A DNA stretch of 64,000 nucleotides from a bacterium ADurb.Bin236 (GTDB taxonomy: Bacteria > UBP15 > UBA6099), in assembly GCA_002069885.1 (NCBI GenBank), contig MWCD01000001.1:2770-66769 (forward strand), read 5' to 3'. Shown in pieces: positions 19,372 to 44,581 of this stretch. Position numbers and translations under genes: made by a program. Below the pieces are notes generated by a model. The model made no database searches. It saw only the letters and a list, made by a program, of their open reading frames with translations, and had not been told where the DNA came from. Position 1 is the first letter of the stretch; every line of letters begins with the position of its first letter.

Positions 19372-19373
19372 AA

Positions 19374-26785: not shown

Positions 26786-26796
26786 GAGGTTCGGCC

Positions 26797-27682: not shown

Positions 27683-27746
27683 TCGCTTGCGGCTCCCATT
27701 TTGAAGATGAGGCGGACGAAAGAGATAAGAGCGAACAGCGGAAAGG

Positions 27747-29531: not shown

Positions 29532-29544
29532 GGCGGATACGGCG

Positions 29545-30081: not shown

Positions 30082-30108
30082 AATACTGAAAGTTTAATTG
30101 AGGTTATT

Positions 30109-30516: not shown

Positions 30517-30563
30517 ATCCGGTTCATCCGAGCGTGAAGCGGCTGCGGTAAGGTTAATCATCG

Positions 30564-31850
30564 ATGAGCGAATCATCTTGCAACTTGTCTGGCGTGGCTC
30601 TTGTGATGTCGGATTTTTTAGATTTGGTGAACCCGAAACTGTCCGGGCATCACAGGTCAGTTGCGTATATCGCAATGTCCGTGGCGGAAAGGCTGGGCCT
30701 GCCGTCCGAGAGCAAAGAAGACATAATACTGGCGTCTCTAACACACGACATAGGCGCGCTTTCCGTTGCCGACAGGATGGAGGCGCTGGATTTCGAGTTC
30801 GTCGACGCCGACAGCCACGCGCGAGCCGGAAGCAGGCTGATCGCAGCGTGCGCTCCGCTTTCCGGCGTGGCGGACATTGTGGCCCGGCATCATGAATGGC
30901 ACGACTCATTCGTAAAATCAGGGGTGGACGCCGACATTGCGTTGAGCGCCTCGATAGTCCATCTCGCCGACAGGGTGTCCATTCTGCTGAACGACAGCTC
31001 CGAGCCGTTGTCGCAACGCAAGAAAATAATCGAAAAAATATCCAAAAGGGCAGGCGGAATGTTCAACCCGCGGGTCGCGGCCGCATTCATCGAAGAATCG
31101 CGCCGCGAAGCGTTCTGGTTCGGCACATTGCCGGAATTCAGAGACTCGGCCATCGCAAGGTTCGTGTCTGAAAACGGGGACGTTGACCTGTCAACGGCTG
31201 ACATGCTCGATGTGGCTAAGCTCTTCTGCCGGATAATAGACTACCGGAGCAGTTTCACCGCCGCGCATTCAGCGGGAGTGGCGGCCTGCGCCAGCGCTAT
31301 CGGCGGCTGCCTAGGTTTGCCGAACCATGAAAAAGCGCGGCTGGAAACTGCGGGCTATATGCACGATATCGGCAAAATGGCGGTTCCTTCATCCCTTATT
31401 GAAAAAAGAGGCGGGCTTGCCGACGAAGAGTTCAACATAGTGAAGTCTCACGCGTTTTATACTTATCACCTTCTGGACAAACTACCCTGTTTTTCCGTCG
31501 TCAGGGATTACGCCGCCATGCACCACGAAAAAATAAACGGGAACGGCTATCCTTTCAAACTCAAAGGCGGCGAGATACCGACGGGAGCCAGAATCGTGGC
31601 GGTCGCAGACGTGTTCACAGCCCTCTCAGAAGACCGTCCGTTCAGAAAAGCCTTAGCATTGGATGACACAATCAAAACTATCGACGAGATGGCTTCAGAC
31701 GGCTCTCTTGACGGCGATATCACGCGCGCGCTCAAATCCAACCTGAGCCTTGTCGATTCAGCCAGAGCAAAAGCGCAGCGCGCAGCCATTTTTGAATACC
31801 GCTCTTTCGAGGACGGACGCGGAATAATCGCTCACAGCGCGTCAGCTTAA
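30564..31850 (+). CDS. tandem-HD protein: degenerate N-terminal HD domain plus canonical C-terminal HD-GYP c-di-GMP phosphodiesterase domain
   Basis: First domain has LTHDIG...HHEWHD with no GYP. Second has MHDIGK...HHEKINGNGYP. Confidence 0.8.
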   Translation: MSESSCNLSGVALVMSDFLDLVNPKLSGHHRSVAYIAMSVAERLGLPSESKEDIILASLTHDIGALSVADRMEALDFEFVDADSHARAGSRLIAACAPLSGVADIVARHHEWHDSFVKSGVDADIALSASIVHLADRVSILLNDSSEPLSQRKKIIEKISKRAGGMFNPRVAAAFIEESRREAFWFGTLPEFRDSAIARFVSENGDVDLSTADMLDVAKLFCRIIDYRSSFTAAHSAGVAACASAIGGCLGLPNHEKARLETAGYMHDIGKMAVPSSLIEKRGGLADEEFNIVKSHAFYTYHLLDKLPCFSVVRDYAAMHHEKINGNGYPFKLKGGEIPTGARIVAVADVFTALSEDRPFRKALALDDTIKTIDEMASDGSLDGDITRALKSNLSLVDSARAKAQRAAIFEYRSFEDGRGIIAHSASA

Positions 31851-31903
31851 CTAACGAAAGGCCGGACGACGCCGACAACTAGGCAATCCGGGATAATGGA
31901 GAT

Positions 31904-32512
31904 ATGGAAAACACAGCCAGAAAATTTATCAGATCAAAAAAAATCCTTGTTGAGAACGTGGAGCCGGGGATGACGCTCGCAGAGGACATTAAAACCGCAG
32001 CGGGCGGAGTAATTCTTCCGGCGGACTCCATCCTATCAATGACCAACATCGAGAGGTTGAAAGAGTTTGATATTTTCTCGATATATGTCGAGGAAGAGAC
32101 AGTTCTCCGGGAGTCCGACGCAATGCGCGGGAAGCGAGCTGTGGTTATCGACGACGCTCTTTTCTTCAGGCACATGTTCTCCAAGATGCTCTACAAGATG
32201 GGCATATTCGTGATGGAAGAAGTGGAAACCGCAGAGGAAGGCGTGTGCCACGCGAGAAAATACCGGCCGGACCTCGTGATAGTCGATATCCATCTTCCCG
32301 GCATGACCGGTATAGAAGCGATTAGGGACATAAAAAGCAAATGCAGCGGCTCGAAATGCGTCGCAGTTTCCACTGACAAAGACCGGAAGACGGTAGTGGA
32401 CGCCCTGCGCGCCGGAGCCGATGACTTTCTGGTCAAACCTGTAATGTGGGATCGCCTCAAACCTAGGATATGCAAACTATTTGATAGTGGCAAAGACGCT
32501 GTTGTCATGTGA
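31904..32512 (+). CDS. response regulator with an N-terminal domain of unknown function and a C-terminal receiver
   Basis: VVIDDALFFRHM...VIVDIHLPGMTG...K receiver in the C-terminal half. Confidence 0.7.
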   Translation: MENTARKFIRSKKILVENVEPGMTLAEDIKTAAGGVILPADSILSMTNIERLKEFDIFSIYVEEETVLRESDAMRGKRAVVIDDALFFRHMFSKMLYKMGIFVMEEVETAEEGVCHARKYRPDLVIVDIHLPGMTGIEAIRDIKSKCSGSKCVAVSTDKDRKTVVDALRAGADDFLVKPVMWDRLKPRICKLFDSGKDAVVM

Positions 32513-32702: not shown

Positions 32703-33033
32703 TTGTTCAAAGTCAGCGCAAATGAGAATCCTAGGCGATAGAAACAAATAATAGATGCGGGTAGTGAGTCAAGGGGCTGGCTTTGCGATGCTGAAGGTGG
32801 TATTAAAGGAGCTTGGCATTGCAGAGATAAATGTTTTAAAAAAGATTAAGAAGCCAATTCCATGTGAGCCGAAAATCCTTAAATGTGCGCAAGATTTGTG
32901 CTAGGGTTTTTATGAATTTGCAGAAGCAATTAAAATTGGCTAAAATCCAAAATCGCTCTTATTTACTGGGCGTTTTCTATGCCGAAGAAGGGAATCGAAC
33001 CCCCACGAGGAGTGATCCTCGGCAGATTTTGAG
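32703..33033. repeat. 331-bp direct repeat, about 99% identical to 44250-44581: a 277-bp non-coding block plus the 54-nt tRNA-Leu 3'-half
   Basis: Base-by-base comparison shows one substitution and one 1-nt indel. It ends exactly at the anticodon-loop junction of the tRNA fragment (32980-33033). Confidence 0.85.
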
Positions 33034-33863
33034 AGAATTGAGAATCTCAAAATTTATTTTCATACAAGGCTTTTATTACATTCAAACAACCTGTGTTACG
33101 CGTGTGTTATAGAGATTCAGGATACATTCATTAAATTCTTGGATTGAAAAGGGTGTGGTAAATTATTCATGCCAATAATGTGACAATGTACTCCTCGTGA
33201 TGTATATTCGGGTTAAAGAGACATTTGCTTGTCCTTAGAGAATCTTTAACAATAGCGACCATTGCTAATAGGAGGCTTGAAAACTTAAAACTTGCGTTCG
33301 GAACATCTGCCTCTCTTGCTGATTTCCGATTCTCATTATCGATTAAGATGAACAACGCAGTCAGACGCTGGAACAACCTTTATGTTAAAGTAACAGACGC
33401 CTATAGAAACAGAAATTCAACTACACTTCAAAACCGTGATTATTGAAATAACGTCTATGCACGAAGTTGCATCGTGCGCTGTGGGTAAACCACTCCACGC
33501 ACGATGATTTTGCCTTTATCGCAGAACTCCGCGACATCCGCGCCTTATCCCACCTGTTTTCGTTTTTTTCCCGATACTCCTTAACGGCAGAGGTTTCGAC
33601 TTCATACTCAAGTTCCTTGTTTCTCTGAAAGTCATACAATGAGATTATATTTTTACGCGTTGCTGTAGGAAATGATGTCATACGATTTATTATTTGGAAT
33701 TATACATGAATTGTTGCTGTTTTCGCTCATGCACAAAAGAATGATTTTTGCGCCGGCGCACAAAAAGATAGGTGAAATCTATTAAGAACAACTATAATTT
33801 GCCAGATTCTATATAAATTCGGAGAAACAGCAATCAATTATCTTCGGATTTGGGAATTAGGTT

Positions 33864-36800
33864 TTAGTCGAATTTGAATTTAATGGAAATGTAAGGGCCT
33901 TTGCCCCAATAAGAGTCGCCGGCGAGGTCGGAGTCGAAGTCGTCGAAGCTGTAGCCTGTTGTCAACCAGATGTTTTTCAAGCATTTGTAGCCGAGTTCGG
34001 CGGAACCGCCGATGCTCTGTGAATTGATGCTTCTGCTTCTCAACGTCCTTGCTTCCAGCCCGATGTCGAACCTGCTGGTCAGATCATAAGTAAACCGCCC
34101 GGCAACCATATCAGTGTAAGACCTGAACAAGTCTGTTTTTGAAATTTTTGCCGCGTATTTTCCGGTTAACGAAAAGCTTTTCGACGGGTGGTAAACGCCC
34201 TCTATGGAATAGATCCTCGCCGACGGAGTGGAGTCCGAAACGACGGGAGAGCTTCTGTCGCGCTTGAATTCTATACGAGCGAAAGCATTGAAGCGGTTGT
34301 TGTGGGCTGGTCTGTAGGCGACACCGACCATGCTGCCGGTGGTGGTGCGCTGTGCTCCGGTCGAGTATCCGGTATTGGACCACCGTTGGCGAAGGAGCAG
34401 GGAGTAATCTGTTCCCATCTTGGCAGCCAGACCGAGTTCGGCGAGGCGGGAAGTATCGAGAGTCGAGTCGCGGTATTCGGCTCTTGCGGTCATTTTAACA
34501 TCTCTCATGAACACAAATTCAGTTCCCGCCGTAACCGCGAAAGCATCGGGGTCGCGCTGCATCTCCGCGCCCTTTACGGTGTTTAGTTTTTCGAGGGAGA
34601 CAGATCCGGAAACCCGGTCGTTGAGAGCAAACTTGTTTCGGACGCCGATAGCCCGCTGGACCCTGCGGCCGTCCGCGCCGCCTTCGAGCCGGTATTCGTT
34701 AAACGCGGACGTGTCCCGCGCAATCGGAGTCTCAACGCCGAGGACATTGCGCCAGCTCCGGCTGCCGTCGAGCCGCCAGAACTCTCTCCTTGCATAAAGA
34801 TGTCCGGCGCCCTTCAGTTTGTAGTCCAGTTTGGCGCTGCTGACGTTGAAGTTGTTATCCTGAATGTCCTGCTGGTGTTCCAGAGTGAGCGCGAGCCTCG
34901 GCCTGATGTTCCCGGTGAGCGAAAACCGCGCGGCGGTCGTCTTACTCGGCGTGCGCTCGGAGATGTCGAAAGGATACCGTGTCCGGTCGGTGTTCGTGAT
35001 GATAAAGTTATCATTGGAACTTTCGCGCAGCAGCTCCGACTCGAATTTCATGTTCCGAATCGTCCGTTTCAGGAGAATCGAGCTCAGGCGGTGATCCATG
35101 TAGTTGACGCTGTCTCTCTCCGTGAAGAACTTGCCCGCGAGGGTCGTGTTTCGATTTTTGAGGAATGAGAATTCGAGTCCTTTTTTCTCCATGCCGCGCT
35201 GCGCATCCACCGCAGACATATTCCCGAAGTAACTCCTCGTGTTTCTCCAGTAGGCGGTAATTTTCGTTCTCTCCAGCGCGTCGCTCTTAAGTTCGAACGA
35301 CCACCCGCCGCCGTTTTTAAGCGCGAGGATATTGTCGATGTTGAACAGCGACTTCGTTTCGGCAAACTCGTATTTCAGGGTGGTGAGCTTGTGGAGTTTG
35401 TAGTCGAAGTCCATGCCCCAGAGATGATAGTCGGAGGTTTCGGCTTCCTGAGTGACTCCCGTGAACCCGACACCGAGGCGGTCGTTCAGTTTGAACCTCA
35501 GCCGGGCGCCGTAGATGTAATACGTGTTTCCGCCGCCCTCTGTCTCATAGCTGACAATCAGGTAAACGGGATTCAGGTCTTCGTCGTAGCTTGGCAACGG
35601 ATCCTTTAGCAGGATTGCGCCGGTTTCGTAATCGATGGAGTATTCGGACCACCTTGACAGTGTGTCTCTGTTCAGCGCCGCCTCTGGCCGGAGCCTGTCG
35701 CGGATTTCGACGGCCACGGTTTCGCTGCCGTCCATAATCGGGGCGGCGGACAGATAATAGTAGCCGGATACGCCGCGGCCGGGTATCGCGTCCACCACCT
35801 GCGACTGGTCGGTGTGAGTCTCGAATGCGGACAGGCGGTACTTATCCGTGTTCATGCCGATCTTCAGGCCGTTGAAGGAGCGCGAGTACGCGCTCAGTTT
35901 CGTCTCGTTGAATCCCGTCTCAAAGTCTCCGAACAGCAAATGGGACTTGCGGCGGTCGAGACGCAGATAAAGTTTCTCGCGGGACTGAGCTTCGAAGCTC
36001 GTCACGCTGTCGTCGCCGTAGATCGGGTACTGGTCTTCGGCGTCAGGATTGCGCAACGAGTTAAAGAAAAGGTCGGGGCGTTTGCTCTTGTGTGAGTCGT
36101 ATGAGAGAGTAAGAAGCGAATCGTCGCCGATTTTTCTTTTTGTGAACAGAGCGCCGCGGGCGCCAGCGTAGCCGCCCCGGTCGAACCAGCCATCGCTGCT
36201 GCGGATCAGTTCCGTGTCTCCGCCCGCTTTCCCGCTGCCGAACCTGAATTCCACGAGGCCCACCGAGAGGTTGTCGCCGAGGTCGGGCGTGAAGTGCACC
36301 TTCGCGGAACCCTGTAGTTCGCCGAACGCGACGGTTATCACCGCCTCGCCTGCCTGTCTCGGCGCTTTTACATCGAACCGCGCAGCGCCGCCGCTGTAGA
36401 GAACCTGCACGCCGTCCATGCTCGCGTCCGCGTCTTTCGTGTCTATTTCCCCGGAGGTTGTTTCGACGGTCGCGATACCTTCATATGCCACGGGAAGCCC
36501 TTTATCGTCGTACACCGAAGCGGAGACGCGCGCCTTCGAAGCGCCGTCCGCGATGATTTCCGTTTTTTCGGGTTTCACCTCAATCTTGGCGGGTAGCCCG
36601 GCGGCGGTAATCCTGATTTCCTTTTCGCTTGTTATATTTCCGTCTTCGTCCCGGGTTTCCGCGCGTATCGCGTTTTCCGCTCCGGGCGCGAGTTGGATTC
36701 CTATGTATTGGTAGATAGCTATTTCAAGCTCGGATTCCGTTATCTTTTTACCGACCCTTTTGCTGCTAACCGGTTCGTCGTTGAGGAAGAGGTAAACCTT

Positions 36801-39800
36801 CGCGGCAAGCGGAGCTTTGACCGTGATATTAGTGTTTGCCGCCGAGGAGACCGATCCGTCCTCGGGATAGAGGATGTCGAGGTCGGGAGTCATCGATGAA
36901 ATCTCTTCTTCGAGAGGAACGTAAACGAACTCTGTCCTGCCGGCGGCCGCGGCCTGTCCGGAGGTTGCGGCTTTTTCGCGGGTTTCCATATTTCTTCTAT
37001 CCGCTGATTCCTTATCGCCGGATACAGTGAAGTCCGCGTTCATGATGCCGCCGGAAACCATGTCTATGAACTGCGAATCCGGATCGCCGGCGAACCTGTT
37101 GGTGGATAGCGAGGAGATCGATATTCCGGCGGGAAGGGTCTTTGCTTCGATCTTAAGCACATGCAGTCCGGGCGTTACGCCGATCACCGAATACTTGCCG
37201 TCCGTTCCGGTTACGATCCTCGCGCCGTCTTCCATGTAAATTGCGACTCCGGACACACCCGGCTCTCCGCGGCTCTGCATTCCGTCGCCGTCAGAATCCA
37301 CAAAAACTTTGCCGACGATGGTGCCGTTCGAGGTGAACACGCCTTCTTTAATGGTTACAGTGTAATATGCGGTGTTGGAAGAAACTGTTTTTGCGCCGAG
37401 AGTTCCCTGAGCGTAAGCGGTGTTTTTGCCATCGCCACGCTTGCTGTCCACTCCGACGACCGTGCTGTAGGAAATTTCGAAGTAACCGCCGGCTGCAAGG
37501 GAAGTGACGCTCCACGCGAGAGTCATGGAAGCGGGCCTTGCGGGGTCAGCCGCCGCGCCGCTGAGTGTTGTCGAGCCGTCGATATACTGCATCCCATGCG
37601 GCAGTATGTCGGTCACCGTGATGTCGTTCACCGGCCAGCTTCCCGAGTTGGAAACACGCACCGTGTACCTTACGATATCTCCGATAGTGGCATTTTTTTT
37701 ATCTGCGGTCTTGGTCACTGCGAGAAGTTCGATCACCGGCGGGTCCACCGGGATGTCGAAGTTCAACGGATAATAAACCAAGTCTCCGCTTTCGACAACG
37801 CCCGCGTCCTCAAATTCGCCCGGGAGCGGGGTTACGAAAGGATTGCCCTTAGACCTTTCATCCACCCTGTACTGCTTCGGCATCTCCGAATTGGGAATCA
37901 GTGATGGGAAAGTAAAATTTCCTCCGACTGCAACGCTTACCCGGTAGTGAGCGCCGTCGGGTGTCTTGGGAACATAGTAAAAAGTAAAAACACCGTCCGC
38001 GCTGGTTCCCGCAACCGAGGGGCTGGGATTGGGTTGGTTATAAGGAAGCGCGACAGAAGTTTCCACGGACTGATCTATTTGGGTAAGGGTCACCACGGCG
38101 CCCGCGACCGGTTCGCCGGTCATCGAGTTGAATACACGGCGCTGCGGCTCCACTAACGCGAACTGACGTGAAAGCGGGGTGCCGTTCGGATCAAACGGAT
38201 CGATATATATCCCTTCGAGTTCTCCTCCCGCAGTTAATGTTATATGACCGTTTCCGGACGTTGCGGCGGTCGCCGATGACCTTGCCGCGCGCGTGGCGGC
38301 CATTTCGCACTGACCGCTGTTCAAGATGTTCGGCACGCAGCCGCGGAACATTTCGGAGTTCGTCCCGACCTCGGTAAGCACGACGGTTTCCGTATCGCCG
38401 CTCAACTTATCAACAATTGTGACTTCCAATGTGTCTTTTGTGTTGGGATTGATATTTCTATCCGCGTCGTTGACTTGCAGATATATGTCCTCATAAGTCA
38501 TTAGCGTGCGTTTAATAGTCGTATATGTTTTATTGTAGATTTCTAGGTAATTATCGACGTCGCGAGCCGAAACCACGGTGGTCGCAGTCGCTGACACCGG
38601 GTCTGAGTCGTCCGCTGTTACGGTCGCCACATTTTTAATCGTATCGCCATCGAGTTCGCTGTCCGGCACGTTGAGAAGCAACTTGAGAGTTTTGCTTTCT
38701 CCGGCGGACAGATCGCCGATGTTCCATGAAACCGAGCCGTTGGAGAAAGTCCCCCCGTTGTCCGCGCTGACGAAACTCGTTTTCTCCGGGATGGGGTCTG
38801 TAGCGAACACGTTTGAAAGCTGTATGTATCCGTCGTTGGAAATCAGTATGGTGTAATAGATGTCGTTTCCCGCGAACGCGGGAAGGCCGGTCTTTGTAAC
38901 TGAAAGCGATGCCTTGCGGATATAAGTTTCGACCGAATTAGAAACCGCCGGAGCAAGTTCGGCGCAGGTTATCGAGGCGATATTGGTGATGGTGGTTTCG
39001 AGCGCGGAGATGGATGAAACGGAAACGGAGAATTCCAGATCGCCTTCAGCGCCGGGAACGATAGCTCCGAGATCCCATGAAACAATGCGGCCCGAGAGAA
39101 CACCGCCGCCCGTGATCGAATTTTCCACGAGCGAGGTTTCGGACGGCAATTCATTGATGACTCTCGCCAGAGACGCATCCGCATTGCCGATGTTCTTGTA
39201 ATGAAGAGCGTAGGTGATTGTGCCGCCGGGGCCGACCACGGCGGACGAGGCCGATAGCGACAGTTTAAGATTCGGTCCCGCGCCGACCATTATGCTATTG
39301 GTATAATTGGTTTGTGTTTCATCCGAAACCATCGTGATGGAATTCTCGATGACATCGCCGACTGAAATTGCGCTTGGGTCGGCGGGAGGATAATCGGCCG
39401 CAGTTTTGACGACGCCGGTGAGTGTGAGCGTGCCGCTCTGACCTACTGCCAGCGATCCGAGATTCCATGAAACGGTCCCGCCGGCCGGACCGGCGGCGTA
39501 AACTCCGCCGCCGGTCGCCGACGAGAATATCACATAATCAGAAATCGAGTTCGTGAGAACTACATTCGATGCATCAGAATTGCCCGAGTTCTCGTAGTAG
39601 ATCGTATAAACGAGCAGTGACCCCATAGCCGTCGGGTCGGAGCTTTCAGTGACCCGGAGGAACAGAACGGGGGCTCCGGAAACTGTGACCTCCGCCTGAG
39701 CTTCGACTCCGGGCATGGGATTTCCGCCCGCGTCACGATACGAAACGAGAGCGCGGTTGACAATCAGGGTTCCGATCGGAGGGCTAGATGCGCGCGCCGG

Positions 39801-39884
39801 CGGGCATGCTGCGGCAAGCGCCATCAGGCATATAAGCGCCGCTCGCGCTGCAATACCGGTGATTTTGCGCTTTACCGATCCCAT
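33864..39884 (-). CDS. giant secreted DUF11-repeat / Ig-like surface protein with a roughly 900-aa C-terminal predicted outer-membrane beta-barrel (2006 aa)
   Basis: Signal peptide MGSVKRKITGIAARAALICLMALAAACPPARA. Multiple DUF11-type repeats (LxYTIxYxNxGNxxASNVVL). C-terminal region has alternating hydrophobic/aromatic strands and ends in ...ISIKFKFD. Confidence 0.75.
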   Translation of the reverse strand: MGSVKRKITGIAARAALICLMALAAACPPARASSPPIGTLIVNRALVSYRDAGGNPMPGVEAQAEVTVSGAPVLFLRVTESSDPTAMGSLLVYTIYYENSGNSDASNVVLTNSISDYVIFSSATGGGVYAAGPAGGTVSWNLGSLAVGQSGTLTLTGVVKTAADYPPADPSAISVGDVIENSITMVSDETQTNYTNSIMVGAGPNLKLSLSASSAVVGPGGTITYALHYKNIGNADASLARVINELPSETSLVENSITGGGVLSGRIVSWDLGAIVPGAEGDLEFSVSVSSISALETTITNIASITCAELAPAVSNSVETYIRKASLSVTKTGLPAFAGNDIYYTILISNDGYIQLSNVFATDPIPEKTSFVSADNGGTFSNGSVSWNIGDLSAGESKTLKLLLNVPDSELDGDTIKNVATVTADDSDPVSATATTVVSARDVDNYLEIYNKTYTTIKRTLMTYEDIYLQVNDADRNINPNTKDTLEVTIVDKLSGDTETVVLTEVGTNSEMFRGCVPNILNSGQCEMAATRAARSSATAATSGNGHITLTAGGELEGIYIDPFDPNGTPLSRQFALVEPQRRVFNSMTGEPVAGAVVTLTQIDQSVETSVALPYNQPNPSPSVAGTSADGVFTFYYVPKTPDGAHYRVSVAVGGNFTFPSLIPNSEMPKQYRVDERSKGNPFVTPLPGEFEDAGVVESGDLVYYPLNFDIPVDPPVIELLAVTKTADKKNATIGDIVRYTVRVSNSGSWPVNDITVTDILPHGMQYIDGSTTLSGAAADPARPASMTLAWSVTSLAAGGYFEISYSTVVGVDSKRGDGKNTAYAQGTLGAKTVSSNTAYYTVTIKEGVFTSNGTIVGKVFVDSDGDGMQSRGEPGVSGVAIYMEDGARIVTGTDGKYSVIGVTPGLHVLKIEAKTLPAGISISSLSTNRFAGDPDSQFIDMVSGGIMNADFTVSGDKESADRRNMETREKAATSGQAAAAGRTEFVYVPLEEEISSMTPDLDILYPEDGSVSSAANTNITVKAPLAAKVYLFLNDEPVSSKRVGKKITESELEIAIYQYIGIQLAPGAENAIRAETRDEDGNITSEKEIRITAAGLPAKIEVKPEKTEIIADGASKARVSASVYDDKGLPVAYEGIATVETTSGEIDTKDADASMDGVQVLYSGGAARFDVKAPRQAGEAVITVAFGELQGSAKVHFTPDLGDNLSVGLVEFRFGSGKAGGDTELIRSSDGWFDRGGYAGARGALFTKRKIGDDSLLTLSYDSHKSKRPDLFFNSLRNPDAEDQYPIYGDDSVTSFEAQSREKLYLRLDRRKSHLLFGDFETGFNETKLSAYSRSFNGLKIGMNTDKYRLSAFETHTDQSQVVDAIPGRGVSGYYYLSAAPIMDGSETVAVEIRDRLRPEAALNRDTLSRWSEYSIDYETGAILLKDPLPSYDEDLNPVYLIVSYETEGGGNTYYIYGARLRFKLNDRLGVGFTGVTQEAETSDYHLWGMDFDYKLHKLTTLKYEFAETKSLFNIDNILALKNGGGWSFELKSDALERTKITAYWRNTRSYFGNMSAVDAQRGMEKKGLEFSFLKNRNTTLAGKFFTERDSVNYMDHRLSSILLKRTIRNMKFESELLRESSNDNFIITNTDRTRYPFDISERTPSKTTAARFSLTGNIRPRLALTLEHQQDIQDNNFNVSSAKLDYKLKGAGHLYARREFWRLDGSRSWRNVLGVETPIARDTSAFNEYRLEGGADGRRVQRAIGVRNKFALNDRVSGSVSLEKLNTVKGAEMQRDPDAFAVTAGTEFVFMRDVKMTARAEYRDSTLDTSRLAELGLAAKMGTDYSLLLRQRWSNTGYSTGAQRTTTGSMVGVAYRPAHNNRFNAFARIEFKRDRSSPVVSDSTPSARIYSIEGVYHPSKSFSLTGKYAAKISKTDLFRSYTDMVAGRFTYDLTSRFDIGLEARTLRSRSINSQSIGGSAELGYKCLKNIWLTTGYSFDDFDSDLAGDSYWGKGPYISIKFKFD

Positions 39885-39915: not shown

Positions 39916-41709
39916 TCAATTTATAGTCACAGAAAACCGCAGGACATACGTGCCGCCTGCGCCGAGACTCGGCGTTTCACCGAGAGCGTTGTTGGAACCC
40001 GAGTCGTAAGTCGCGCCGTCGCCGTCGCTTGCATCCGTCCGGGAAACAAGCGTTCCCGTAGTGGCGCCCGTGTACAGACTGCCCGGCACGTATGTCGTGT
40101 GCAGCGGGATGTGATCGGTTATAACTACTACCGTGGCCACTCCTGTGCCGGAATTGGTTGCAGTTATCGTGTAGGTGAGAGTCGTTCCGGGAGGCTGAGT
40201 TCCGGTAGGGCTGACCGATTTGGTAAGCGTGACAACCGGCGCTGTGACCGTGGTGGTGAAGGTAAGGATGTCGCTCTTCGAGGTGTCAACCGAAGACTTC
40301 CCGGTCACGGCAAGGGTATCGATGCTCTGGTCCGAGGCGCCGGCGGGTATCGTAACTACTGCCAGCACAGAGATGGTCCCATTCTGCGCCAGCGTGCCGG
40401 TATCGACTTTGCCGTCGGCATCCGTGTCCGTCAGCAGATAATCTCCGTCGTTGCCGGATATGCCGTCGTTGTTCATATCCGCCCAGAACACCCATGTCCA
40501 GCCTTGGCTGGACGTGTAAGTCAAGTCGATCACGTCGTTGGAGTTTGTGTAGTTGTGGACTGTGAAAGGGTAGGTGATTTTGTCGCTCGGATCGCCTGAA
40601 AGCGCTGTTATGGTGACGGTCAGGTCAACCGAAGCGAGCGCGCCCACGAATAACGTTCTGCCGTTCGAGTATGTGGTTACATTGTTCGGCCCGGAAACGT
40701 ATGCGACGGACGCCTGATTCGTGATGGTCGAGTTATATGCCACGCCGCTGTTCACCGTGGCCTGAAATGTCACCGCCTTGGTTGAACCGGCATTGATTGT
40801 TCCCACAGTTACCGTCACCGCGCCTCCGGTTGTCCCGTTGTAATCCGAGCCGTCGTCGCCGGTGGCGTCCGTTTTCGTGGTTCCGTCTAATGTTATGCTG
40901 CCCGGCACGTACGTGACGCCCGTCGGGACGACGTCGGTCATTACAACCGAAGTTCCCGCCGACGACCCGGTGTTCGACATGGTGATCGTGTATGTCACGG
41001 TGTCGCCGGGCGCGGGGGATTCAGGCGAGTGGGTCTTAGCGGCATTAATCACCGCCGCGGCGACTGTCGTGGTGTACAGACCCGTGGTTGTCTGCCCGGG
41101 GTCGAACTGCGAAGTCGCCGTTATGGTAATGGTGTTGCTCGTGCCGTCCGTGGCGGCGCCGGACGCCGGAATCGTCACAAACATAAAAACGTCGTAATCG
41201 TCGTCCGCAACGACTGTTCCGGTTGTGTATTTTCCGGCGACGGCGGTCATCAGCGTGTCCGTCCCGGCATCGTAAGTATGGTTATTGTTAATATCGTAAT
41301 AGAATGTGATCGAAGACGGTGTCCACGCGCCCCCGACTGCATACGTGAAGTCGAACTTGTCGCTTCCGTTTCCGTCATTGAATATCTGAAAAAAATGCAT
41401 GATCGTAGTGTTGTTGGCGCCTGCCATGGTCCCGGACGGAGGGACTAACGAGACTGCTGCCACCTGACTTACCGTAGTTGTGACGGTGTTCGAGTAAACG
41501 CGCGTCATCGAGTTGTTGTTGGCGTCCTTGTAGTCAACGTACGCTTGATTCGAGATGATGGTGCCGGATGCCGTCCCGACCGCGTACAGTTTCGCCGCGG
41601 CCGCGACTATCCCCGCCGCCGCGAGCAGGAACAGCAGCGCCTCTAAAAACCGTTTCTTTTTTCCGTTTCTTATTTTCGTTGCATTTCTCATTACAGAGCC
41701 CCCTTTCAA
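39916..41709 (-). CDS. secreted DUF11-repeat protein (597 aa)
   Basis: Signal peptide-like N-terminus. Repeated TYTITxxNTG / DxxDxDG blocks. Confidence 0.7.
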   Translation of the reverse strand: MKGGSVMRNATKIRNGKKKRFLEALLFLLAAAGIVAAAAKLYAVGTASGTIISNQAYVDYKDANNNSMTRVYSNTVTTTVSQVAAVSLVPPSGTMAGANNTTIMHFFQIFNDGNGSDKFDFTYAVGGAWTPSSITFYYDINNNHTYDAGTDTLMTAVAGKYTTGTVVADDDYDVFMFVTIPASGAATDGTSNTITITATSQFDPGQTTTGLYTTTVAAAVINAAKTHSPESPAPGDTVTYTITMSNTGSSAGTSVVMTDVVPTGVTYVPGSITLDGTTKTDATGDDGSDYNGTTGGAVTVTVGTINAGSTKAVTFQATVNSGVAYNSTITNQASVAYVSGPNNVTTYSNGRTLFVGALASVDLTVTITALSGDPSDKITYPFTVHNYTNSNDVIDLTYTSSQGWTWVFWADMNNDGISGNDGDYLLTDTDADGKVDTGTLAQNGTISVLAVVTIPAGASDQSIDTLAVTGKSSVDTSKSDILTFTTTVTAPVVTLTKSVSPTGTQPPGTTLTYTITATNSGTGVATVVVITDHIPLHTTYVPGSLYTGATTGTLVSRTDASDGDGATYDSGSNNALGETPSLGAGGTYVLRFSVTIN

Positions 41710-41713
41710 GGAC

Positions 41714-42241
41714 TTACTTTACTTTTACTTTAAAACTGACCTTGCCCGACTTTCCCGGCTCCACCGTTTTGGCAATCAGCCACTTGATGTGGGTGTACAT
41801 ATCCGCCGGGGCTTCTTTCTCTTCGCTTTTTCCATCGGGTTTTTCCTCTATATATTTAATCGGAGGTTTCTGGAACACCCGCCCTCCGTCTATACTGAAT
41901 CCAATCTCCGTGTCTTTTCCATCAGCGCTGCCGATTATGTAAACCGTACCCTTCGGGACTGGGTCCACCACGGAGATGTCCTTCAACGGCGCTTTTCCTT
42001 CATTGGTGTAGGTTATGGCATAAACCAGAACGTCGCCGCGTTCAGCGTTGTCCGCAGGCTTCAGTTCCGTAACTTTCTTTCCGTTCTTCTCGACAATGGA
42101 TACAAGGTTTGCTTTGATTTCGAGCTTCAGAGGCTGTTTTAGCGATTTGCCTTTTTCCTGCGCCACCGCGGACCGCGCCGCGAACGCCGCCATCAGAAGA
42201 ACCACGACAATGCAAGCTGTTCTGATCTTGTAATTTTTCAT
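41714..42241 (-). CDS. small secreted single-DUF11-domain protein (175 aa)
   Basis: Signal peptide MKNYKIRTACIVVVLLMAAFAARSAVAQE, then DVLVYAITYTNEGKAPLKDISVVDPVP. Confidence 0.7.
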   Translation of the reverse strand: MKNYKIRTACIVVVLLMAAFAARSAVAQEKGKSLKQPLKLEIKANLVSIVEKNGKKVTELKPADNAERGDVLVYAITYTNEGKAPLKDISVVDPVPKGTVYIIGSADGKDTEIGFSIDGGRVFQKPPIKYIEEKPDGKSEEKEAPADMYTHIKWLIAKTVEPGKSGKVSFKVKVK

Positions 42242-42254: not shown

Positions 42255-44015
42255 TCAATTCACGGACACCGTGAAGCAGACAATCCCCTCGTCCGTCCCT
42301 GAATTAGGAACGGAGTCGTTAGCGGAAACGTTGCCGATTTTGAAAATGATGTTGGAGCCGCTGAGTTCAGCTTCGTCGCCGTCCACGGCGTCTGTTTTAG
42401 CAGTAGCCGTAGCGCAAGTGGCGGCGGCGCCGCCGATCTTGAGGCTGTTTACGCTATATATTGCTCCCGTCGGTATTGAGTCGGTGATCTGAACCACGCT
42501 CGCCGCCGCGCCTCCAATATTTTGATACCTGACCGTGTATGTTATCGTCGCCCCGGGCAGCACGGTGGCTGTTGACGTCGTTTTGGTCAGTGTGATCTGG
42601 GGCGCGGTGACAACAACAGGCGCGGTGTGGCCCGTGGTTGCCGTGGTGAAGTTTGCGCCGGACACCGTCGCGGTATTGTAGGCCGTCGTGTTCGGCCCGC
42701 CGACTTTCGCCTTGAATATAAGCGTCACTGTTCCATTCACGATCCCTACTTTTTTCGGAACTGTCCAGCTACCGCTCCAAGTCTGGTTCTGCCCGTTTAT
42801 CGTCGGATTTGAAGTAGTCAGTCCGGATGTGTTTCCCGTTATGTAAGTGAATCCGTTCGGAAGAGTATCAGTGATATTGGAAATCCAGCCGTCGCCCGGC
42901 CCGCTGTTGGTGACTGTGATTGTGTATGTGGCGGTTGCGCCCGAAACCGCTGATCCGACATCGACTACTTTTGCGATCGTTATCGTAGGGCCGTATATCT
43001 GAAGCGTATCGGTTCGCGTCTGATTCATAAGCCCGCCGGCGCTTATTTGATCGTGGTATGTCACTGTAACCGTCTCGGAAGGCATGACCTCGAGGATATT
43101 GTTCCCAAGTATCGGTATGGAGGAGGAAGTAGTGGCCGACCCGGTGAATATTCCGGTGTTCGCTCCTGTTTCCGTGAGAGTAATAGCCAGCGTATCTCCC
43201 GTCTGGGTCGTCAGGGTGACGGTTACCGTCTGCGTTGTTGCGGTGTCAACATTAATGTCCGAGTCGTTCACGCGAACGTATAGCGAAGCGCCGGAGTCTG
43301 CCATAGTAACATCGCCGTTCCCCGCAGCGTCCGCCACAAACATCACGGCGCCTGTGGTCGGCGTTGTGCCGACCAGCTTAACAGGGTCGGAAACCGCCGT
43401 GTATAGATCCGATCCGGCCACGAGGTCCGCAGAAAGAACTACTCCGTTGCTCGAGGACCCGAACCACAGCCTTATGGGAGAATTGTCATTAATCCCGGTC
43501 GCCGTTTTGAATGTGCTGTATGGGAATCTCCAATCGACGAAGTAATCCTGATTTCCGTTTATTGTCGTATCAGCGGCGGTGATTACGATATTACCTGAAA
43601 CCGTAATGGTCGAAACGCTGGTCTCCGGGCCATCGTTTGGGCTTCCCATCGTTCCCTGCGTCGAATTCTGCCACAGGACTATGGTTTCGGGATTTCCGAT
43701 TCCGTCAACCATTATAGACCATTCATAATCTCCCGCGTTGTTGTTTGAATCGATCAGCACTCCCCAGCCGAATGAAGCAAGCAGCCCTTGTCCGCCGGAG
43801 CCTGCAGGGTTGGAGTCTAACCTGAGCCGGAAATACATATAATTGCCGTCGTTGTAAATGAAAGCCGCATCGTGCGCGGGCGAGGATACTATATTTCTCG
43901 AACCGTTAGCATCAGTGAGGGAATCCTGAAGCAGGTCGCCATTTTTGAATACCGGAATCCACTGCGCAGTCGTCGGCCATGCCTCAACCTTCGTTGCCTG
44001 CAGCAAAGCCGACAA
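42255..44015 (-). CDS. DUF11-repeat surface protein (586 aa as called). The true start is probably upstream, up to about 44063.
   Basis: DUF11 blocks (ATYTITVTNSGPGDG, ITYTVRYQNIGGAAAS). An in-frame upstream extension encodes a textbook signal peptide (SKKHTIQIFFISIIALSALLQA|TKVEA) but no ATG/GTG/TTG precedes it. Confidence 0.65.
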   Translation of the reverse strand: MSALLQATKVEAWPTTAQWIPVFKNGDLLQDSLTDANGSRNIVSSPAHDAAFIYNDGNYMYFRLRLDSNPAGSGGQGLLASFGWGVLIDSNNNAGDYEWSIMVDGIGNPETIVLWQNSTQGTMGSPNDGPETSVSTITVSGNIVITAADTTINGNQDYFVDWRFPYSTFKTATGINDNSPIRLWFGSSSNGVVLSADLVAGSDLYTAVSDPVKLVGTTPTTGAVMFVADAAGNGDVTMADSGASLYVRVNDSDINVDTATTQTVTVTLTTQTGDTLAITLTETGANTGIFTGSATTSSSIPILGNNILEVMPSETVTVTYHDQISAGGLMNQTRTDTLQIYGPTITIAKVVDVGSAVSGATATYTITVTNSGPGDGWISNITDTLPNGFTYITGNTSGLTTSNPTINGQNQTWSGSWTVPKKVGIVNGTVTLIFKAKVGGPNTTAYNTATVSGANFTTATTGHTAPVVVTAPQITLTKTTSTATVLPGATITYTVRYQNIGGAAASVVQITDSIPTGAIYSVNSLKIGGAAATCATATAKTDAVDGDEAELSGSNIIFKIGNVSANDSVPNSGTDEGIVCFTVSVN

Positions 44016-44249
44016 GGCTATAATTGAAATAAAAAAAATTTGTATTGTATGTTTTTTTGAAATATTAAATTCCTCTCATTTTAATATATATATCACAAAA
44101 CAATCTCATTATGACAAGCTTGTTAAAAAAATATCTTAATAATTAATAATTGAAGTTTTCACCCGCGCAGGATAATAATTCGAAGATGACTATCTCAAAT
44201 GGTTTGAGGGGCGCGGCGAACAGTGAGCAGTTGGAGATGACCATGCGCC

Positions 44250-44581
44250 TTGTTCAAAGTCAGCGCAAATGAGAATCCTAGGCGATAGAAAACAAATAAT
44301 AGATTCGGGTAGTGAGTCAAGGGGCTGGCTTTGCGATGCTGAAGGTGGTATTAAAGGAGCTTGGCATTGCAGAGATAAATGTTTTAAAAAAGATTAAGAA
44401 GCCAATTCCATGTGAGCCGAAAATCCTTAAATGTGCGCAAGATTTGTGCTAGGGTTTTTATGAATTTGCAGAAGCAATTAAAATTGGCTAAAATCCAAAA
44501 TCGCTCTTATTTACTGGGCGTTTTCTATGCCGAAGAAGGGAATCGAACCCCCACGAGGAGTGATCCTCGGCAGATTTTGAG
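44250..44581. repeat. 332-bp direct repeat (partner of 32703-33033) lying 3' of, and overlapping, the intact tRNA-Leu
   Basis: Same comparison as for 32703-33033. Contains a TTGCAG-N17-TAAAAT promoter-like motif at 44466-44494 on the plus strand. Confidence 0.85.

Follow-up and report, generated by a model that had tools for sequence, protein, structure and literature searches.

A four-gene bacterial operon with complementary split CLIPPER domains and a predicted 38-strand outer-membrane barrel

Introduction

CLIPPER domains are characteristic of surface adhesin stalks (PMC12617251). In A. silvestris B9T28_05395 (PDB 9IFR), the CLIPPER stalk domain carries a Lys-Asp-Asn intramolecular isopeptide triad and the protein has an OmpA-like anchor; intramolecular bonds are the only ones described, and a barrel, split domains and partner subunits are not mentioned (PMC12617251). 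Inter-subunit isopeptide bonds occur in archaeal threads, which are donor-strand fibres (PMC9715654), and C. perfringens BsaA forms an 'exchange and lock' fibre (bioRxiv 10.1101/2024.11.04.621531). In both, an N-terminal strand completes the beta-sheet of the next subunit, with an Asn-Lys bond and an acidic catalyst (PMC9715654; 10.1101/2024.11.04.621531); their folds are TasA-like or other, in archaea and monoderms, without an outer membrane. Chaperone-usher pili consist of Ig-type subunits that lack C-terminal strand(s) and receive an N-terminal donor from the next subunit, between an acceptor-only tip and a donor-only terminator, and their usher is a large outer-membrane barrel with an inserted beta-sandwich. 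SprA/Sov, the type IX secretion translocon, which serves the export of folded surface proteins, is a giant single-chain barrel; SprA, with 36 strands, is described as the largest known. A supplementary table lists D. radiodurans AAF11946, UID71982 and UID69687 as '38-stranded, N-terminal invasin-D3 Ig-like domains' (PMC9388160, Table S3), an entry that mentions neither CLIPPER stalks nor partner genes nor a mechanism.

Here, we describe an operon of four genes, A to D, from bacterium ADurb.Bin236, located in a stretch of 64,000 nucleotides that is referred to as the window. Protein D shares the CLIPPER stalk domain and its triad with the A. silvestris protein, and Ig-like domains of the invasin D3 type directly before a barrel predicted at 38 strands with the D. 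radiodurans proteins, whose function is likewise unassigned and which are likened to D by description alone. It resembles type Va systems in its single chain with an N-terminal passenger and a C-terminal barrel, type Vb in the split stalk and barrel gene pairs of its relatives, and type Ve (intimin/invasin) in an invasin-D3/Big_1-like Ig domain adjoining the barrel. Unlike type V proteins, D has no Autotransporter, ShlB/POTRA or IAT_beta domain and no predicted alpha-helical linker, its barrel is predicted to have 38 strands instead of 12 or 16, and passenger and barrel are kept apart by periplasmic domains (Ig-Ig, joined by OmpA in relatives). The term 'autotransporter-like', used in a sequence-only reading of this DNA, holds only as an analogy of architecture; D belongs to neither type V secretion nor the usher family and has no feature of either.

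The operon resembles chaperone-usher pili in its truncated subunits, its N-terminal donors, the proposed acceptor-only tip and donor-only terminator, and the predicted large barrel with an inserted beta-sandwich, ushers being among the fold matches of D. It differs from them in that A-D have no Pfam Usher or PapD-chaperone match, the barrel is predicted at 38 strands instead of 24, the insert follows strand 7 on the long-loop side instead of occupying a periplasmic turn, the donor is a two-strand hairpin instead of one strand, terminator and barrel form a single chain, and CnaA-like CLIPPER domains with an isopeptide triad make up the subunits. SprA/Sov is similar in size and also among the fold matches, but its TM-score to D is below 0.2, T9SS partners and C-terminal sorting domains are absent here, and the taxa differ. 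Compared with archaeal threads and BsaA, A-D have a CLIPPER/CnaA-like fold, a hairpin as donor and a base fused to an outer-membrane barrel, and here we only infer a covalent bond.

Results

Gene content of the operon and layout of protein D

The genes of the operon and their terminal elements are as follows.

33864..39884, minus strand: gene D, CLIPPER-stalk and giant-barrel protein, open reading frame of 2006 aa with an ATG start
39916..41709, minus strand: gene C, 597 aa (Pfam, TIGR04226, HMM coordinates)
41458-41580, minus strand: donor hairpin of gene C, after the signal peptide
39919-40248, minus strand: truncated C-terminal 'acceptor' CLIPPER domain of gene C
41714..42241, minus strand: gene B, 175 aa, signal peptide and one Lys-rich CLIPPER-like domain
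42255..44075, minus strand: gene A, 586 aa from TTG 44015
42258-42593, minus strand: truncated C-terminal acceptor domain of gene A

In gene A, a unique N-terminal domain precedes one complete CLIPPER domain and the truncated acceptor domain; a signal-peptide-like stretch without a canonical start lies upstream of TTG 44015. The single CLIPPER-like domain of B ends after the F strand, making B acceptor only, and C has two complete modules between its donor hairpin and its acceptor domain and matches NCBIfam TIGR04226, 'isopeptide-forming fimbrial', with 47 bits (cut-off 30). Loci of several phyla, at least 20 in all, keep the order A-B-C-D, and so does cultured Sphingomonas sp. LM7.

The coordinates and length of D are exactly those first proposed, and its layout rests on Pfam and NCBIfam matches and on homologs that share its length and domain order. 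Besides a signal peptide, residues 1-1200 contain four DUF11/CLIPPER domains, one CarboxypepD_reg-like domain, SdrD_B and two Ig-like domains:

39789..39884, minus strand: signal peptide, aa 1-32, ending ...PPARA|SS (sequence reading; layout matched in homologs)
39672..39788, minus strand: orphan 'donor' G-H hairpin, aa 33-71, GTLIVNRALVSYRD...AQAEVTVS (motif and HMM)
38565..39671, minus strand: three complete CLIPPER/DUF11 domains, aa 72-440 (Pfam PF01345 stretches)
37722..38564, minus strand: middle domains, aa 441-721, of DxDxN/ETGxNTG type and CarboxypepD_reg-like (sequence; PF13620 in homologs)
37020..37721, minus strand: conserved core module, CLIPPER aa 722-846 then SdrD_B aa 850-955 (Pfam)
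36855..37019, minus strand: linker, aa 956-1010, site of OmpA insertion or gene split in homologs
36285..36854, minus strand: two Ig-like domains just N-terminal to the barrel, aa 1011-1200 (Pfam, sub-cut-off)

The DUF11/Ig character read into this part was borne out by Pfam DUF11, now CLIPPER (167 bits, cut-off 24.6, four stretches), by NCBIfam TIGR01451 (118 bits), by SdrD_B at aa 859-926 and by the Ig-like domains. CLIPPER domain 3 matches our HMM 'clip' with 116.6 bits over positions 1-118; the core CLIPPER domain (aa 722-846) has the Lys/Asp/Asn triad, and aa 722-817 match the CLIPPER domain of PDB 9IFR. PF13620 is present at the equivalent position of D homologs. The second Ig-like domain (aa 1098-1200) is Invasin_D3/Big_1-like, with a Pfam score below cut-off, and the D family profile matches invasin 1CWV (E=2e-4).

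The C-terminal region as a predicted outer-membrane barrel

No Pfam or NCBIfam model covers aa ~1200-2006 of D. Composition sets this region apart from the N-terminal part, with 11.9% against 6.6% F+W+Y, the abundance of aromatic residues noticed earlier, and 8.6% against 3.1% Arg. The strand-like alternation on which the sequence-only reading also relied does not by itself discriminate a barrel from a beta-sandwich: the period-2 moment, 0.71 +/- 0.05 in shuffled sequences, reaches 0.80 in the beta-sandwiches of the N-terminal part and 0.84 in the C-terminal part. The predicted strands have a hydrophobic side (L, F, A, I, V, Y; mean Kyte-Doolittle +0.70) opposite a polar one (S, R, K, E, G; mean -1.13).

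Two AF2 models, from 19 sequences (pLDDT 77.7, pTM 0.68) and from 48 sequences (pLDDT 82.6, pTM 0.76), agree in strand layout and show a hairpin meander of ~38 long strands. Among the 50 best Foldseek PDB matches listed per model, all are outer-membrane barrels (SlpA, MtrB, FimD/PapC, LptD, TonB-dependent receptors, SprA, porins) except two ApoB100 entries. SlpA is the best match; TM-scores lie mostly at 0.15-0.3 and reach at most 0.40, and such low values agree better with a wider single barrel than with two ordinary ones. At the sequence level, the family profile matches the V. cholerae porin OmpT (E=5.6e-9), and some homologs have weak PF13505, PF10082 or PF07642 matches. Covariation between neighbouring barrel strands is 0.175 against a background of 0.077, with no signal for closure between strands 1 and 38 (0.06, Meff 235). 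In the AF2 models, short turns of 2-7 aa alternate with long loops of up to 41 and 96 aa; from this alternation and the strand count, taken from DSSP strings, we arrive at 7+31 = 38 strands.

33867..36272, minus strand: predicted 38-strand outer-membrane beta-barrel, aa ~1205-2006 (AF2, Foldseek, profile, parity, covariation)
35973..36095, minus strand: long loop between barrel strands 3 and 4 with the YPxYGD motif, aa 1264-1304 (conservation)
35538..35807, minus strand: ~90-aa beta-sandwich insert between barrel strands 7 and 8, aa ~1360-1449 (conservation, covariation)

A single very large barrel of 38 predicted strands is well supported, both termini being predicted to be periplasmic, and it would exceed every solved barrel. 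An adhesin-like passenger and a giant barrel in one polypeptide had been proposed, and AF2, Foldseek and the OmpT match bear this out; the barrel, earlier put at ~900 aa, takes up ~800 aa, the insert included, and its predicted strand number is beyond the LptD or usher size suggested for it, LptD having 26 strands and ushers 24.

The YPxYGD motif is near-invariant in the family, and its loop has low pLDDT in both models. The inserted beta-sandwich, the best-conserved portion of the barrel domain, has no relative in Pfam or the PDB; covariation pairs strands 155-164 with 261-271, which sets the insert boundaries, and 245-255 with the insert. In the models, this loop and the insert would lie on the long-loop, outer side, and the two Ig-like domains at the periplasmic rim. 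The C-terminal strand resembles a beta-signal and is conserved family-wide: the ending ...GPYISIKFKFD, of which ...ISIKFKFD had been singled out as barrel-typical, belongs to a family signature '(G)PY.x.R.KFD(E)', followed in most homologs by an extra tail of 5-30 aa.

Fused, split and OmpA-bearing relatives

The architecture, first taken to be unusual, is not rare in nature. A profile search returned 7,505 clusters, none with a functional name and mostly fused proteins of ~2000 aa; thousands have the same layout, and most of the 150 best matches carry stalk and barrel in one chain. The taxa include Desulfobacterota-like MAGs, Proteobacteria, Cyanobacteria and others. Elsewhere the two parts are adjacent genes, with a 4-bp overlap in two cases: Hydrogenophaga (2806 aa + 1046 aa + OmpA, split at the position of the D linker), S. 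meliloti (3362 aa + 1261 aa), Nitratireductor, Chamaesiphon, Burkholderiaceae and Limnochordia. Fused or adjacent, barrel and stalk would act together. Among the genomic partners of the barrel, the CLIPPER-SdrD_B module alone is constant, and it also forms the C-terminal end of separate partner proteins (Hydrogenophaga, Chamaesiphon). Stalk partners of 2200-3362 aa would exceed what the periplasm could hold. Three homologs (P0229, P0247, P0258) carry an OmpA domain between SdrD_B and the Ig-Ig-barrel part, and this mid-chain position puts at least some of the chain in the periplasm.

Complementary split CLIPPER domains

The new observation is that A, B, C and D have complementary split-CLIPPER ends. 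The C-terminal CLIPPER domains of A, B and C end after the F strand and lack G-H, and mature C and D open with an orphan G-H hairpin. Homologs stop 0-2 residues past the F strand in 16/16 cases for A, 25/25 for B and 24/24 for C. When aligned to an HMM made from 125 complete CLIPPER domains, acceptor domains never extend beyond position 86-89; C and D align through their N-termini to ~86-117 (the D hairpin to ~90-112), and the donor Asn falls on the column of the isopeptide Asn. The donor motif follows the signal peptide in 213 (loose) or 87 (strict) of 234 full-length D homologs (background 0.006 per 90 aa), and the C N-terminus is near-invariant between phyla. The pattern also occurs in other MAGs, A. 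haemolyticus p4, Chamaesiphon and Sphingomonas.

When the donor sequence is appended to the acceptor, the HMM match again spans the full length, the score rising from 37.7 to 49.6 or 48.7 bits for C (shuffled donors 37-38 +/- 1-2) and from 46.2 to 50.7 bits for A; single donor-peptide matches are weak (E ~0.2-0.4), and their significance lies in their consistency. The triad is kept in trans, with Lys on the acceptor A strand, Asp in the acceptor and Asn in the donor, so the joint may be covalently locked; since the G-strand Asn is also conserved in CLIPPER domains without Lys, this conservation is no proof of a covalent bond.

Discussion

The complementary ends of A, B and C and starts of C and D point to head-to-tail joining by donor-hairpin complementation. 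We give about an even chance to D being the barrel-fused base subunit of a surface fibre built in this way from CLIPPER (DUF11, CnaA-like) domains. A or B, acceptor only, would form the tip; C, both donor and acceptor, would stand between tip and D in one or many copies; and D, donor only, would be anchored through the barrel, with the joints possibly locked by the triad in trans. The barrel would be both membrane anchor and conduit taking the stalk to the surface, the CarboxypepD_reg-CLIPPER-SdrD_B module would end in or at its lumen, and the linker would lead back into the periplasm, the site of a peptidoglycan-binding OmpA domain in relatives. Such an arrangement would functionally mirror chaperone-usher pili with the terminator fused to the 'usher', from parts unrelated to that pathway; no chaperone-like gene was recognised. 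Export through the barrel and polymerisation are both presumed. C could also close in cis, pairing its N-terminal hairpin with its own C-terminal domain and giving no polymer, and against the fibre stands the unexplained passage of A, B and C through a barrel that already holds the D stalk.

A rather unlikely alternative makes D a self-contained giant 'autotransporter' whose barrel serves the export and anchoring of its own N-terminal CLIPPER passenger alone, with A, B and C as independent DUF11 proteins, secreted or periplasmic. The fused passenger of most homologs would fit, as would the two- and three-gene versions without A, B and C (stalk, barrel and OmpA in Hydrogenophaga); the conserved gene order across phyla and the exact, conserved complementarity of the ends speak against it, and in Hydrogenophaga, where A, B and C are missing, the partner is without the donor motif too.

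We regard as improbable that the barrel is a structural anchor without translocation, its Ig-like and CLIPPER chain, with OmpA in relatives, tying the outer membrane to peptidoglycan or bearing an S-layer-like coat, as suggested by the top Foldseek rank of SlpA (30 strands, a connector of outer membrane and peptidoglycan) and by the many relatives with a fused or adjacent OmpA domain. That domain adjoins the barrel and not the far chain end, the 700-3000 residues N-terminal to it would have no room in the periplasm, CLIPPER domains typify surface stalks, and Pfam finds no peptidoglycan-binding domain in the window operon.

A channel for an unrelated substrate (protein, polysaccharide or MtrCAB-like electron carriers) with the DUF11 part as periplasmic scaffold would agree with the MtrB, usher and LptD fold matches; we consider it very improbable, as A-D have no CxxCH motifs, the operon has no polysaccharide or lipid-transport genes, and the CLIPPER-SdrD_B module is the sole constant partner. 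Least probable of all is that the AF2 models are wrong and aa 1205-2006 form an open sheet or soluble beta structure, for the moderate outward hydrophobicity and missing closure covariation that would allow it are opposed by the pTM of 0.76, the nearly exclusive barrel matches, the porin match, the conserved C-terminal strand and the regular loop parity, AF2 and Foldseek having favoured a barrel over a soluble beta-sandwich array.

Surroundings of the operon

A terminator-like hairpin follows the D stop codon by ~100 nt, and a perfect direct repeat of 335 bp is present in two copies.

33745..33766, minus strand: terminator-like hairpin (consensus scan alone)
44250..44581, no strand: right copy of the repeat, overlapping the 3' 54 nt of tRNA-Leu(CAA)
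44528-44613, minus strand: tRNA-Leu(CAA)
32703..33033, no strand: left copy of the repeat

The left copy contains an orphan tRNA-Leu 3' fragment at 32980-33033.

Domain architecture and predicted barrel of protein D

Protein D, the subject of this analysis, is encoded by a single ORF of 2006 aa (33864-39884, minus strand, ATG start), as the sequence-only reading had described it, and begins with a Sec-type signal peptide (aa 1-32, ending ...PPARA before SS). It belongs to the Pfam family PF01345 (DUF11/CLIPPER), which matches in four stretches at 167.3 bits (cut-off 24.6); the related Pfam models DUF7507, DUF7619 and DUF7927 match as well, and TIGR01451 (117.6 bits; cut-off 24) is the sole addition from NCBIfam. 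DUF11 has been renamed CLIPPER in Pfam, a CnaA-like domain with an intramolecular Lys-Asn isopeptide bond, typical of the stalks of fibrillar adhesins (PMC12617251). The solved CLIPPER domain PDB 9IFR matches aa 722-817, and single-sequence searches of the PDB with the barrel, the N-terminal part of D and the upstream proteins A and B gave nothing else of use. Sequence motifs for all residues of the isopeptide triad (VTKT / TDxxP / xNxA) are present in domains 3 and 4, and the Lys is absent from domain 1. Pfam also detects an SdrD_B domain at aa 859-926 and, below threshold, an Invasin_D3/Big_1-like Ig domain at aa 1098-1200 (Invasin_D3, 24.9 bits against a cut-off of 33). The region from aa ~1200 to 2006 is without a match in either Pfam or NCBIfam.

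This C-terminal region (aa ~1205-2006) is very probably an outer-membrane barrel. Aromatic residues make up 11.9% of the last 812 aa against 6.6% of the N-terminal part, Arg is likewise enriched, and the predicted strands are hydrophobic on one face and polar on the other. A simple period-2 signal did not separate this region from the N-terminal beta-sandwiches, so the earlier impression of barrel-like alternation was right but not decisive by itself. Two AlphaFold2 runs on aa 1195-2006, with 19 sequences (pLDDT 77.7, pTM 0.68) and with 48 sequences (pLDDT 82.6, pTM 0.76), gave models of identical layout, with long strands connected by hairpins. When these models were compared with the PDB using Foldseek, the top 50 matches listed for each were outer-membrane barrels except for two ApoB100 structures, and included SprA (36 strands), SlpA (30), MtrB (26), LptD (26), FimD/PapC (24), TonB-dependent receptors (22) and porins. 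Probabilities among these matches were close to 1, and TM-scores were mostly 0.15-0.3 and never above 0.40, which we read as a barrel curvature matched by no solved structure. Two ordinary barrels in succession would superpose on some target of 16-22 strands, and none does, which argues against a two-barrel reading. By sequence, the barrel-family profile matches the Vibrio cholerae porin OmpT (E=5.6e-9), as well as invasin 1CWV at the Ig domain directly before the barrel (E=2e-4). The AlphaFold2 layout, the Foldseek matches and the OmpT match thus bear out the giant C-terminal barrel proposed from sequence.

The number of strands was counted from the AlphaFold2 models and DSSP, with an inserted domain assigned separately, as 7 + 31 = 38. 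Mean-field DCA of 292 homologs (Meff 235) showed covariation between hairpin-neighbour strands (0.175 against a background of 0.077). Strand 155-164 (model numbering) is the partner of 261-271, and 245-255 finds its partners within 166-236. This marks residues ~166-255 (aa ~1360-1449) as a beta-sandwich of its own, set between the neighbouring barrel strands 7 and 8. This insert has no relative in Pfam or the PDB. In the same DCA, neither closure between strands 1 (aa 1206-1217) and 38 (aa 1992-2005) nor the alternative closure into two barrels was visible. A barrel of 38 strands is the probable count, its closure being the weakest link. Short turns (2-7 residues) and longer loops (up to 41 and 96 residues) follow each other in regular alternation; since short turns of outer-membrane proteins usually face the periplasm, both termini of the barrel are placed there. 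A near-invariant YPxYGD loop and the insert would then lie on the outer side or be folded into the lumen. The last strand, '...R.KFD(E)', resembles a C-terminal beta-signal and is conserved in the family. Together with the even strand number and the alternation of turns and loops, this strand gives D the general features of an outer-membrane beta-barrel, presumably a closed one. Standard barrel geometry would give a C-alpha diameter of ~6.5-7 nm. A single-chain barrel of 38 strands would exceed the 36 strands of SprA, the barrel named in the literature as the largest known, and raises the questions of how it is folded by BAM and how so wide a pore is sealed.

Size, distribution and shared anatomy of the barrel family

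A word-index homolog search returned only 19 relatives, suggesting a rare family; this was ruled out by an exhaustive profile search of 1.84 billion representatives, which yielded 7,505 clusters (defined at 50% identity) at E<=1e-3 and 3,284 at E<=1e-30. The best 150 matches are mostly 1,600-2,400 aa long with a C-terminal barrel, and the fused stalk-barrel architecture is therefore the norm. D belongs to a very large, as yet unnamed family and is no curiosity of the ADurb.Bin236 genome, so the architecture regarded as unusually large in the sequence-only reading is no oddity. Members are called 'hypothetical', 'DUF11 domain-containing', 'uncharacterized repeat protein (TIGR01451)' or 'OmpA family' in their source records. 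No Pfam or NCBIfam model exists for the barrel domain, and such a model would re-annotate thousands of genes. Some standalone barrel homologs are named 'TonB-dependent receptor', which looks like misannotation; the label is found in RefSeq for the protein of Nitratireductor pOM-1 (WP_245447842.1, L053) and for hits H8, H11, H14, H16, H22 and H26. Some hits span only the first ~300 barrel residues (strands 1-7 plus the insert) and possibly represent a more divergent barrel subgroup.

The hosts include Syntrophales/Smithella, Desulfobacterales, Lentisphaerota, Verrucomicrobiota, Omnitrophota, Gemmatimonadota, Chamaesiphon, Limnochordia and alpha-, beta- and gamma-proteobacteria, with plasmid-borne copies in Acinetobacter haemolyticus and Sinorhizobium meliloti. 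Comparison of fused and split forms revealed a constant core, in the order CarboxypepD_reg-like, CLIPPER, SdrD_B, linker, two Ig-like domains and barrel. In the split form of Hydrogenophaga, a 2806-aa repeat protein ends just past SdrD_B and its gene overlaps by 4 bp with that of a 1046-aa Ig-plus-barrel protein, which has its own signal peptide and is followed by the gene of an OmpA-family protein. The pair of S. meliloti (stalk 3362 aa, barrel 1261 aa) also overlaps by 4 bp, the Nitratireductor stalk (1859 aa) is directly followed by its barrel (1263 aa), and separate genes occur in Chamaesiphon, a Burkholderiaceae MAG and a Limnochordia MAG as well. One subgroup, of Sphingomonad type, has a peptidoglycan-binding OmpA domain inserted into the linker, after SdrD_B and before the Ig-Ig-barrel part, which places the linker in the periplasm at least in this subgroup. 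Stalk partners of 2,200-3,362 aa could hardly remain periplasmic, and their sole constant neighbour is the barrel; we infer from this that the barrel serves as their route to the surface and as their anchor. An apparent two-gene form in a Syntrophales MAG (L001/L037, on a 2.47-Mb contig) was rejected: the frame changes within an Ig domain (aa 1045/1046, locus ~10000-10020), and no signal peptide precedes the downstream product (P0002). This split of a D homolog probably reflects a sequencing error or pseudogene formation.

The A-B-C-D operon and its split CLIPPER domains

Three signal-peptide DUF11 genes, A, B and C, lie tightly packed upstream of D on the same strand:

42255-44015, minus strand: gene A, signal-peptide DUF11 gene, 586 aa
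41714-42241, minus strand: gene B, signal-peptide DUF11 gene, 175 aa
39916-41709, minus strand: gene C, signal-peptide DUF11 gene, 597 aa

The order A-B-C-D was recovered by tblastn in at least 20 related loci, and the layout is also present in the cultured Sphingomonas sp. LM7. C matches the NCBIfam model TIGR04226 ('isopeptide-forming domain-containing fimbrial protein') above its cut-off, and A has a unique N-terminal domain of ~200 aa. B contains 15% Lys, against only 2-3% Lys and 15-18% Thr in A and C; its chemistry thus sets it apart from the putative fibre subunits, in keeping with a role as cap or chaperone. Homologs of A begin with a signal peptide followed by 'AWPT..QWIPVYK'. In our genome, a signal-peptide-like stretch, KKHTIQIFFISIIALSALLQATKVEA, lies in frame upstream of the listed TTG of A (window 44016-44078, minus strand), with no ATG, GTG or TTG between it and the upstream stop (44078-44076). 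The start of gene A is either non-canonical (ATT or ATA) or affected by a sequence error beside an A7 run.

A complete CLIPPER domain consists, in order, of an A strand (VTKT, with the Lys), a 'TDxxP' motif (Asp), an F strand, a G strand (IxNxAxV, with the isopeptide Asn) and an H strand. The last domains of A, B and C end directly after the F strand, as '...GIVCFTVSVN*', '...GKVSFKVKVK*' and '...TYVLRFSVTIN*', respectively, the asterisk marking the stop. This truncation, which leaves an acceptor, was found in every homolog (16/16 for A, 25/25 for B and 24/24 for C; 65/65 together). The acceptor domain spans aa 475-586 in A and aa 488-597 in C. The missing part appears at the opposite end of other proteins of the operon: mature C begins with an orphan G-H hairpin, GTIISNQAYVDYKDANNNSMTRVYSNTVTTTV, and so does mature D, GTLIVNRALVSYRD...AQAEVTVS, where a complete CLIPPER domain comes next. 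Among 234 full-length D homologs, 213 carry this donor motif after the signal peptide under a loose definition and 87 under a strict one, against 0.006 per 90 aa elsewhere. The donor hairpin of C is nearly invariant across phyla. The donor stretch covers aa 33-71 in D, with N43 as its Asn, and aa 44-84 in C, with N54.

The fit between the two parts was evaluated with an HMM built from 125 complete internal CLIPPER domains. Acceptor domains never extend beyond HMM position 86-89, and donor peptides cover positions ~86-117, their Asn falling on the column of the isopeptide Asn. The C acceptor alone scored 37.7 bits (HMM 3-85); joined in silico to a donor it scored 49.6 or 48.7 bits (HMM 3-117 or 3-106), a full-length match, whereas shuffled-donor controls stayed at 37-38 +/- 1-2 bits. 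For A the score rose from 46.2 to 50.7 bits, and the local alignment of the B chimera broke at an insertion and was uninformative on complementation. The Asp is kept in acceptors (IxDxIP, IVDPxP, VITDxxP), and the A-strand Lys in A and most C homologs. In their sequences, A-D thus show the pattern of donor-strand-complemented fibres, a subunit fold short of its terminal strands with a complementary N-terminal donor on the next subunit.

The same donor and acceptor logic recurs in A. haemolyticus plasmid p4, Chamaesiphon and Sphingomonas LM7. No A, B or C genes neighbour the Hydrogenophaga stalk partner, which is also devoid of the donor motif. On A. haemolyticus p4 (CP085288.1, L052), the C-like gene (locus 2630-5464) looks broken into short CDSs of 64, 62, 97, 145, 187 and 272 aa, with a transposase downstream; the first CDS has a signal peptide and the donor motif 'GASISNVATASYID'.

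Comparison with known secretion and fibre systems

Literature searches retrieved no account of split CLIPPER domains or of DUF11/CLIPPER combined with a giant barrel. The closest description is an unannotated set in a supplementary table, the predicted 38-stranded OMBBs of D. radiodurans with N-terminal invasin-D3 Ig-like domains (AAF11946, UID71982 and UID69687; PMC9388160 Table S3). Both features were found independently in D, the likeness being one of description, and in our searches these accessions were indexed in no paper.

The chaperone-usher pathway combines a PF00577 barrel (24 strands, with plug, NTD and CTDs), a PapD-like periplasmic chaperone and pilins. In its logic the A-D system resembles the pili of this pathway: the Ig fold is incomplete, the donor is N-terminal, the tip could only accept and the terminator only donate, and the large barrel contains an inserted sandwich. 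In contrast to these pili, a hairpin and not a single strand is donated, the terminator (D) is fused to the barrel, and this barrel has 38 strands instead of 24, with its insert on the opposite side of the membrane. The insert was considered as an usher plug and rejected, as loop parity puts it, after strand 7, on the long-loop (outer) side. The Usher, PapD and fimbrial Pfam families gave no match in A-D, and in Foldseek the D barrel aligned with FimD/PapC at E~1e-6 with TM-scores of only 0.2-0.3.

D is likewise not SprA, LptD, MtrB or SlpA. The T9SS proteins SprA/Sov of Bacteroidota (36 strands, >2000 aa, with PorV and plug partners) differ in host taxa and superpose with TM-scores of 0.16-0.18, and no T9SS genes were found near D.

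The sequence-only reading had called the architecture autotransporter-like; taken as a family assignment this does not hold, and D belongs to none of the type V classes. Type Va proteins carry the 12-strand Autotransporter beta-domain (PF03797), whose pore holds an alpha-helical linker, whereas D has no PF03797 match, ~38 predicted strands and no helix longer than 5 residues before the barrel. In type Vb, TpsB consists of POTRA domains and a 16-strand Omp85-type barrel, and TpsA carries an N-terminal TPS domain; D and its neighbouring genes have no POTRA, ShlB or TPS matches, with Ig-like domains before the barrel instead. Type Ve proteins (intimin/invasin) place a 12-strand IAT_beta barrel at the N-terminus and Big_1/invasin Ig passengers after it, whereas D shows the reverse order without an IAT_beta match, and only one of its Ig domains resembles Invasin_D3. 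An MtrCAB-like electron conduit was rejected, since A-D contain no CxxCH motif, and the 'grappling hook' DUF11 filaments of Litorilinea and Aureispira differ in kind, as they consist of one giant chain whose secretion involves no signal peptide.

A proposed fibre pathway

The operon likely encodes a surface fibre or adhesin, the base of which doubles as its outer-membrane pore and anchor. After Sec export, the subunits would be joined head to tail by complementation with donor hairpins. A and B only accept and would stand at the distal end of the chain, A perhaps as a tip adhesin with its unique N-terminal domain, and B, a single Lys-rich domain, perhaps as a cap or keeper of free donor hairpins. 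C donates and accepts and could be present in one or many copies, and D, which only donates, would terminate the chain, with its barrel holding it in the outer membrane. C could also close on itself in cis, and we give hairpin complementation in trans among A, B, C and D about even chances. That the D barrel serves as export route and anchor is an interpretation we favour by a little; the conserved CarboxypepD_reg-CLIPPER-SdrD_B module may sit in or at its lumen, and partner subunits would then have to share the barrel with D's own stalk. The conservation of Lys, Asp and Asn in trans would permit a covalent lock at the joints, which we consider rather unlikely; it would resemble the 'exchange and lock' of archaeal threads (PMC9715654) and of C. 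perfringens BsaA (bioRxiv 10.1101/2024.11.04.621531). The complete scheme, a widespread undescribed fibre pathway of diderms in which CLIPPER subunits polymerised by hairpins and locked by Lys-Asn bonds are exported, terminated and anchored by a fused 38-strand barrel, is put forward tentatively.

This split-CLIPPER assembly model is new, specific and testable, and cultured carriers allow direct testing: Sphingomonas sp. LM7, with a chromosomal locus at about 755-776 kb of CP019511.1, and A. haemolyticus, with its plasmid p4. If the model is right, an unrecognised type of pilus or adhesin with self-assembling, possibly covalent joints would be common to Desulfobacterota-like MAGs, Sphingomonas, Acinetobacter and cyanobacteria, with a bearing on the biology of biofilms and syntrophic aggregates and with possible new protein-ligation tags. 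The full pathway, if true, would be an independent invention of chaperone-usher logic with the largest single-chain membrane barrel known, and its spontaneous intermolecular Lys-Asn bond a natural split-domain 'Tag/Catcher'.

Genomic surroundings of the operon

A perfect direct repeat of 335 bp brackets the operon (32703-33033 and 44250-44581, spacing 11,548 bp). The right copy includes the 3' 54 nt of a tRNA-Leu(CAA) gene (44528-44613, minus strand), the left copy holds an identical orphan fragment (32980-33033), and no integrase lies between them. GC content falls to 42% at 32-34 kb of the window. The repeat may be the scar left by an island or by recombination, or else an artefact of the assembly. 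Two short ORFs in an AT-rich stretch downstream of D (33421-33681, minus strand, 86 aa; 32864-33112, plus strand, 82 aa) have no family match, and the second lies inside the left repeat copy. The operon is adjoined by a chemosensory and two-component cluster (window 13456-32512, plus strand) that encodes a PAS-GAF histidine kinase, a sigma-54 activator, CheA, an MCP, a FapA-REC protein, an HD-GYP-type HD_5 protein and a lone receiver domain, and that might regulate surface behaviour.
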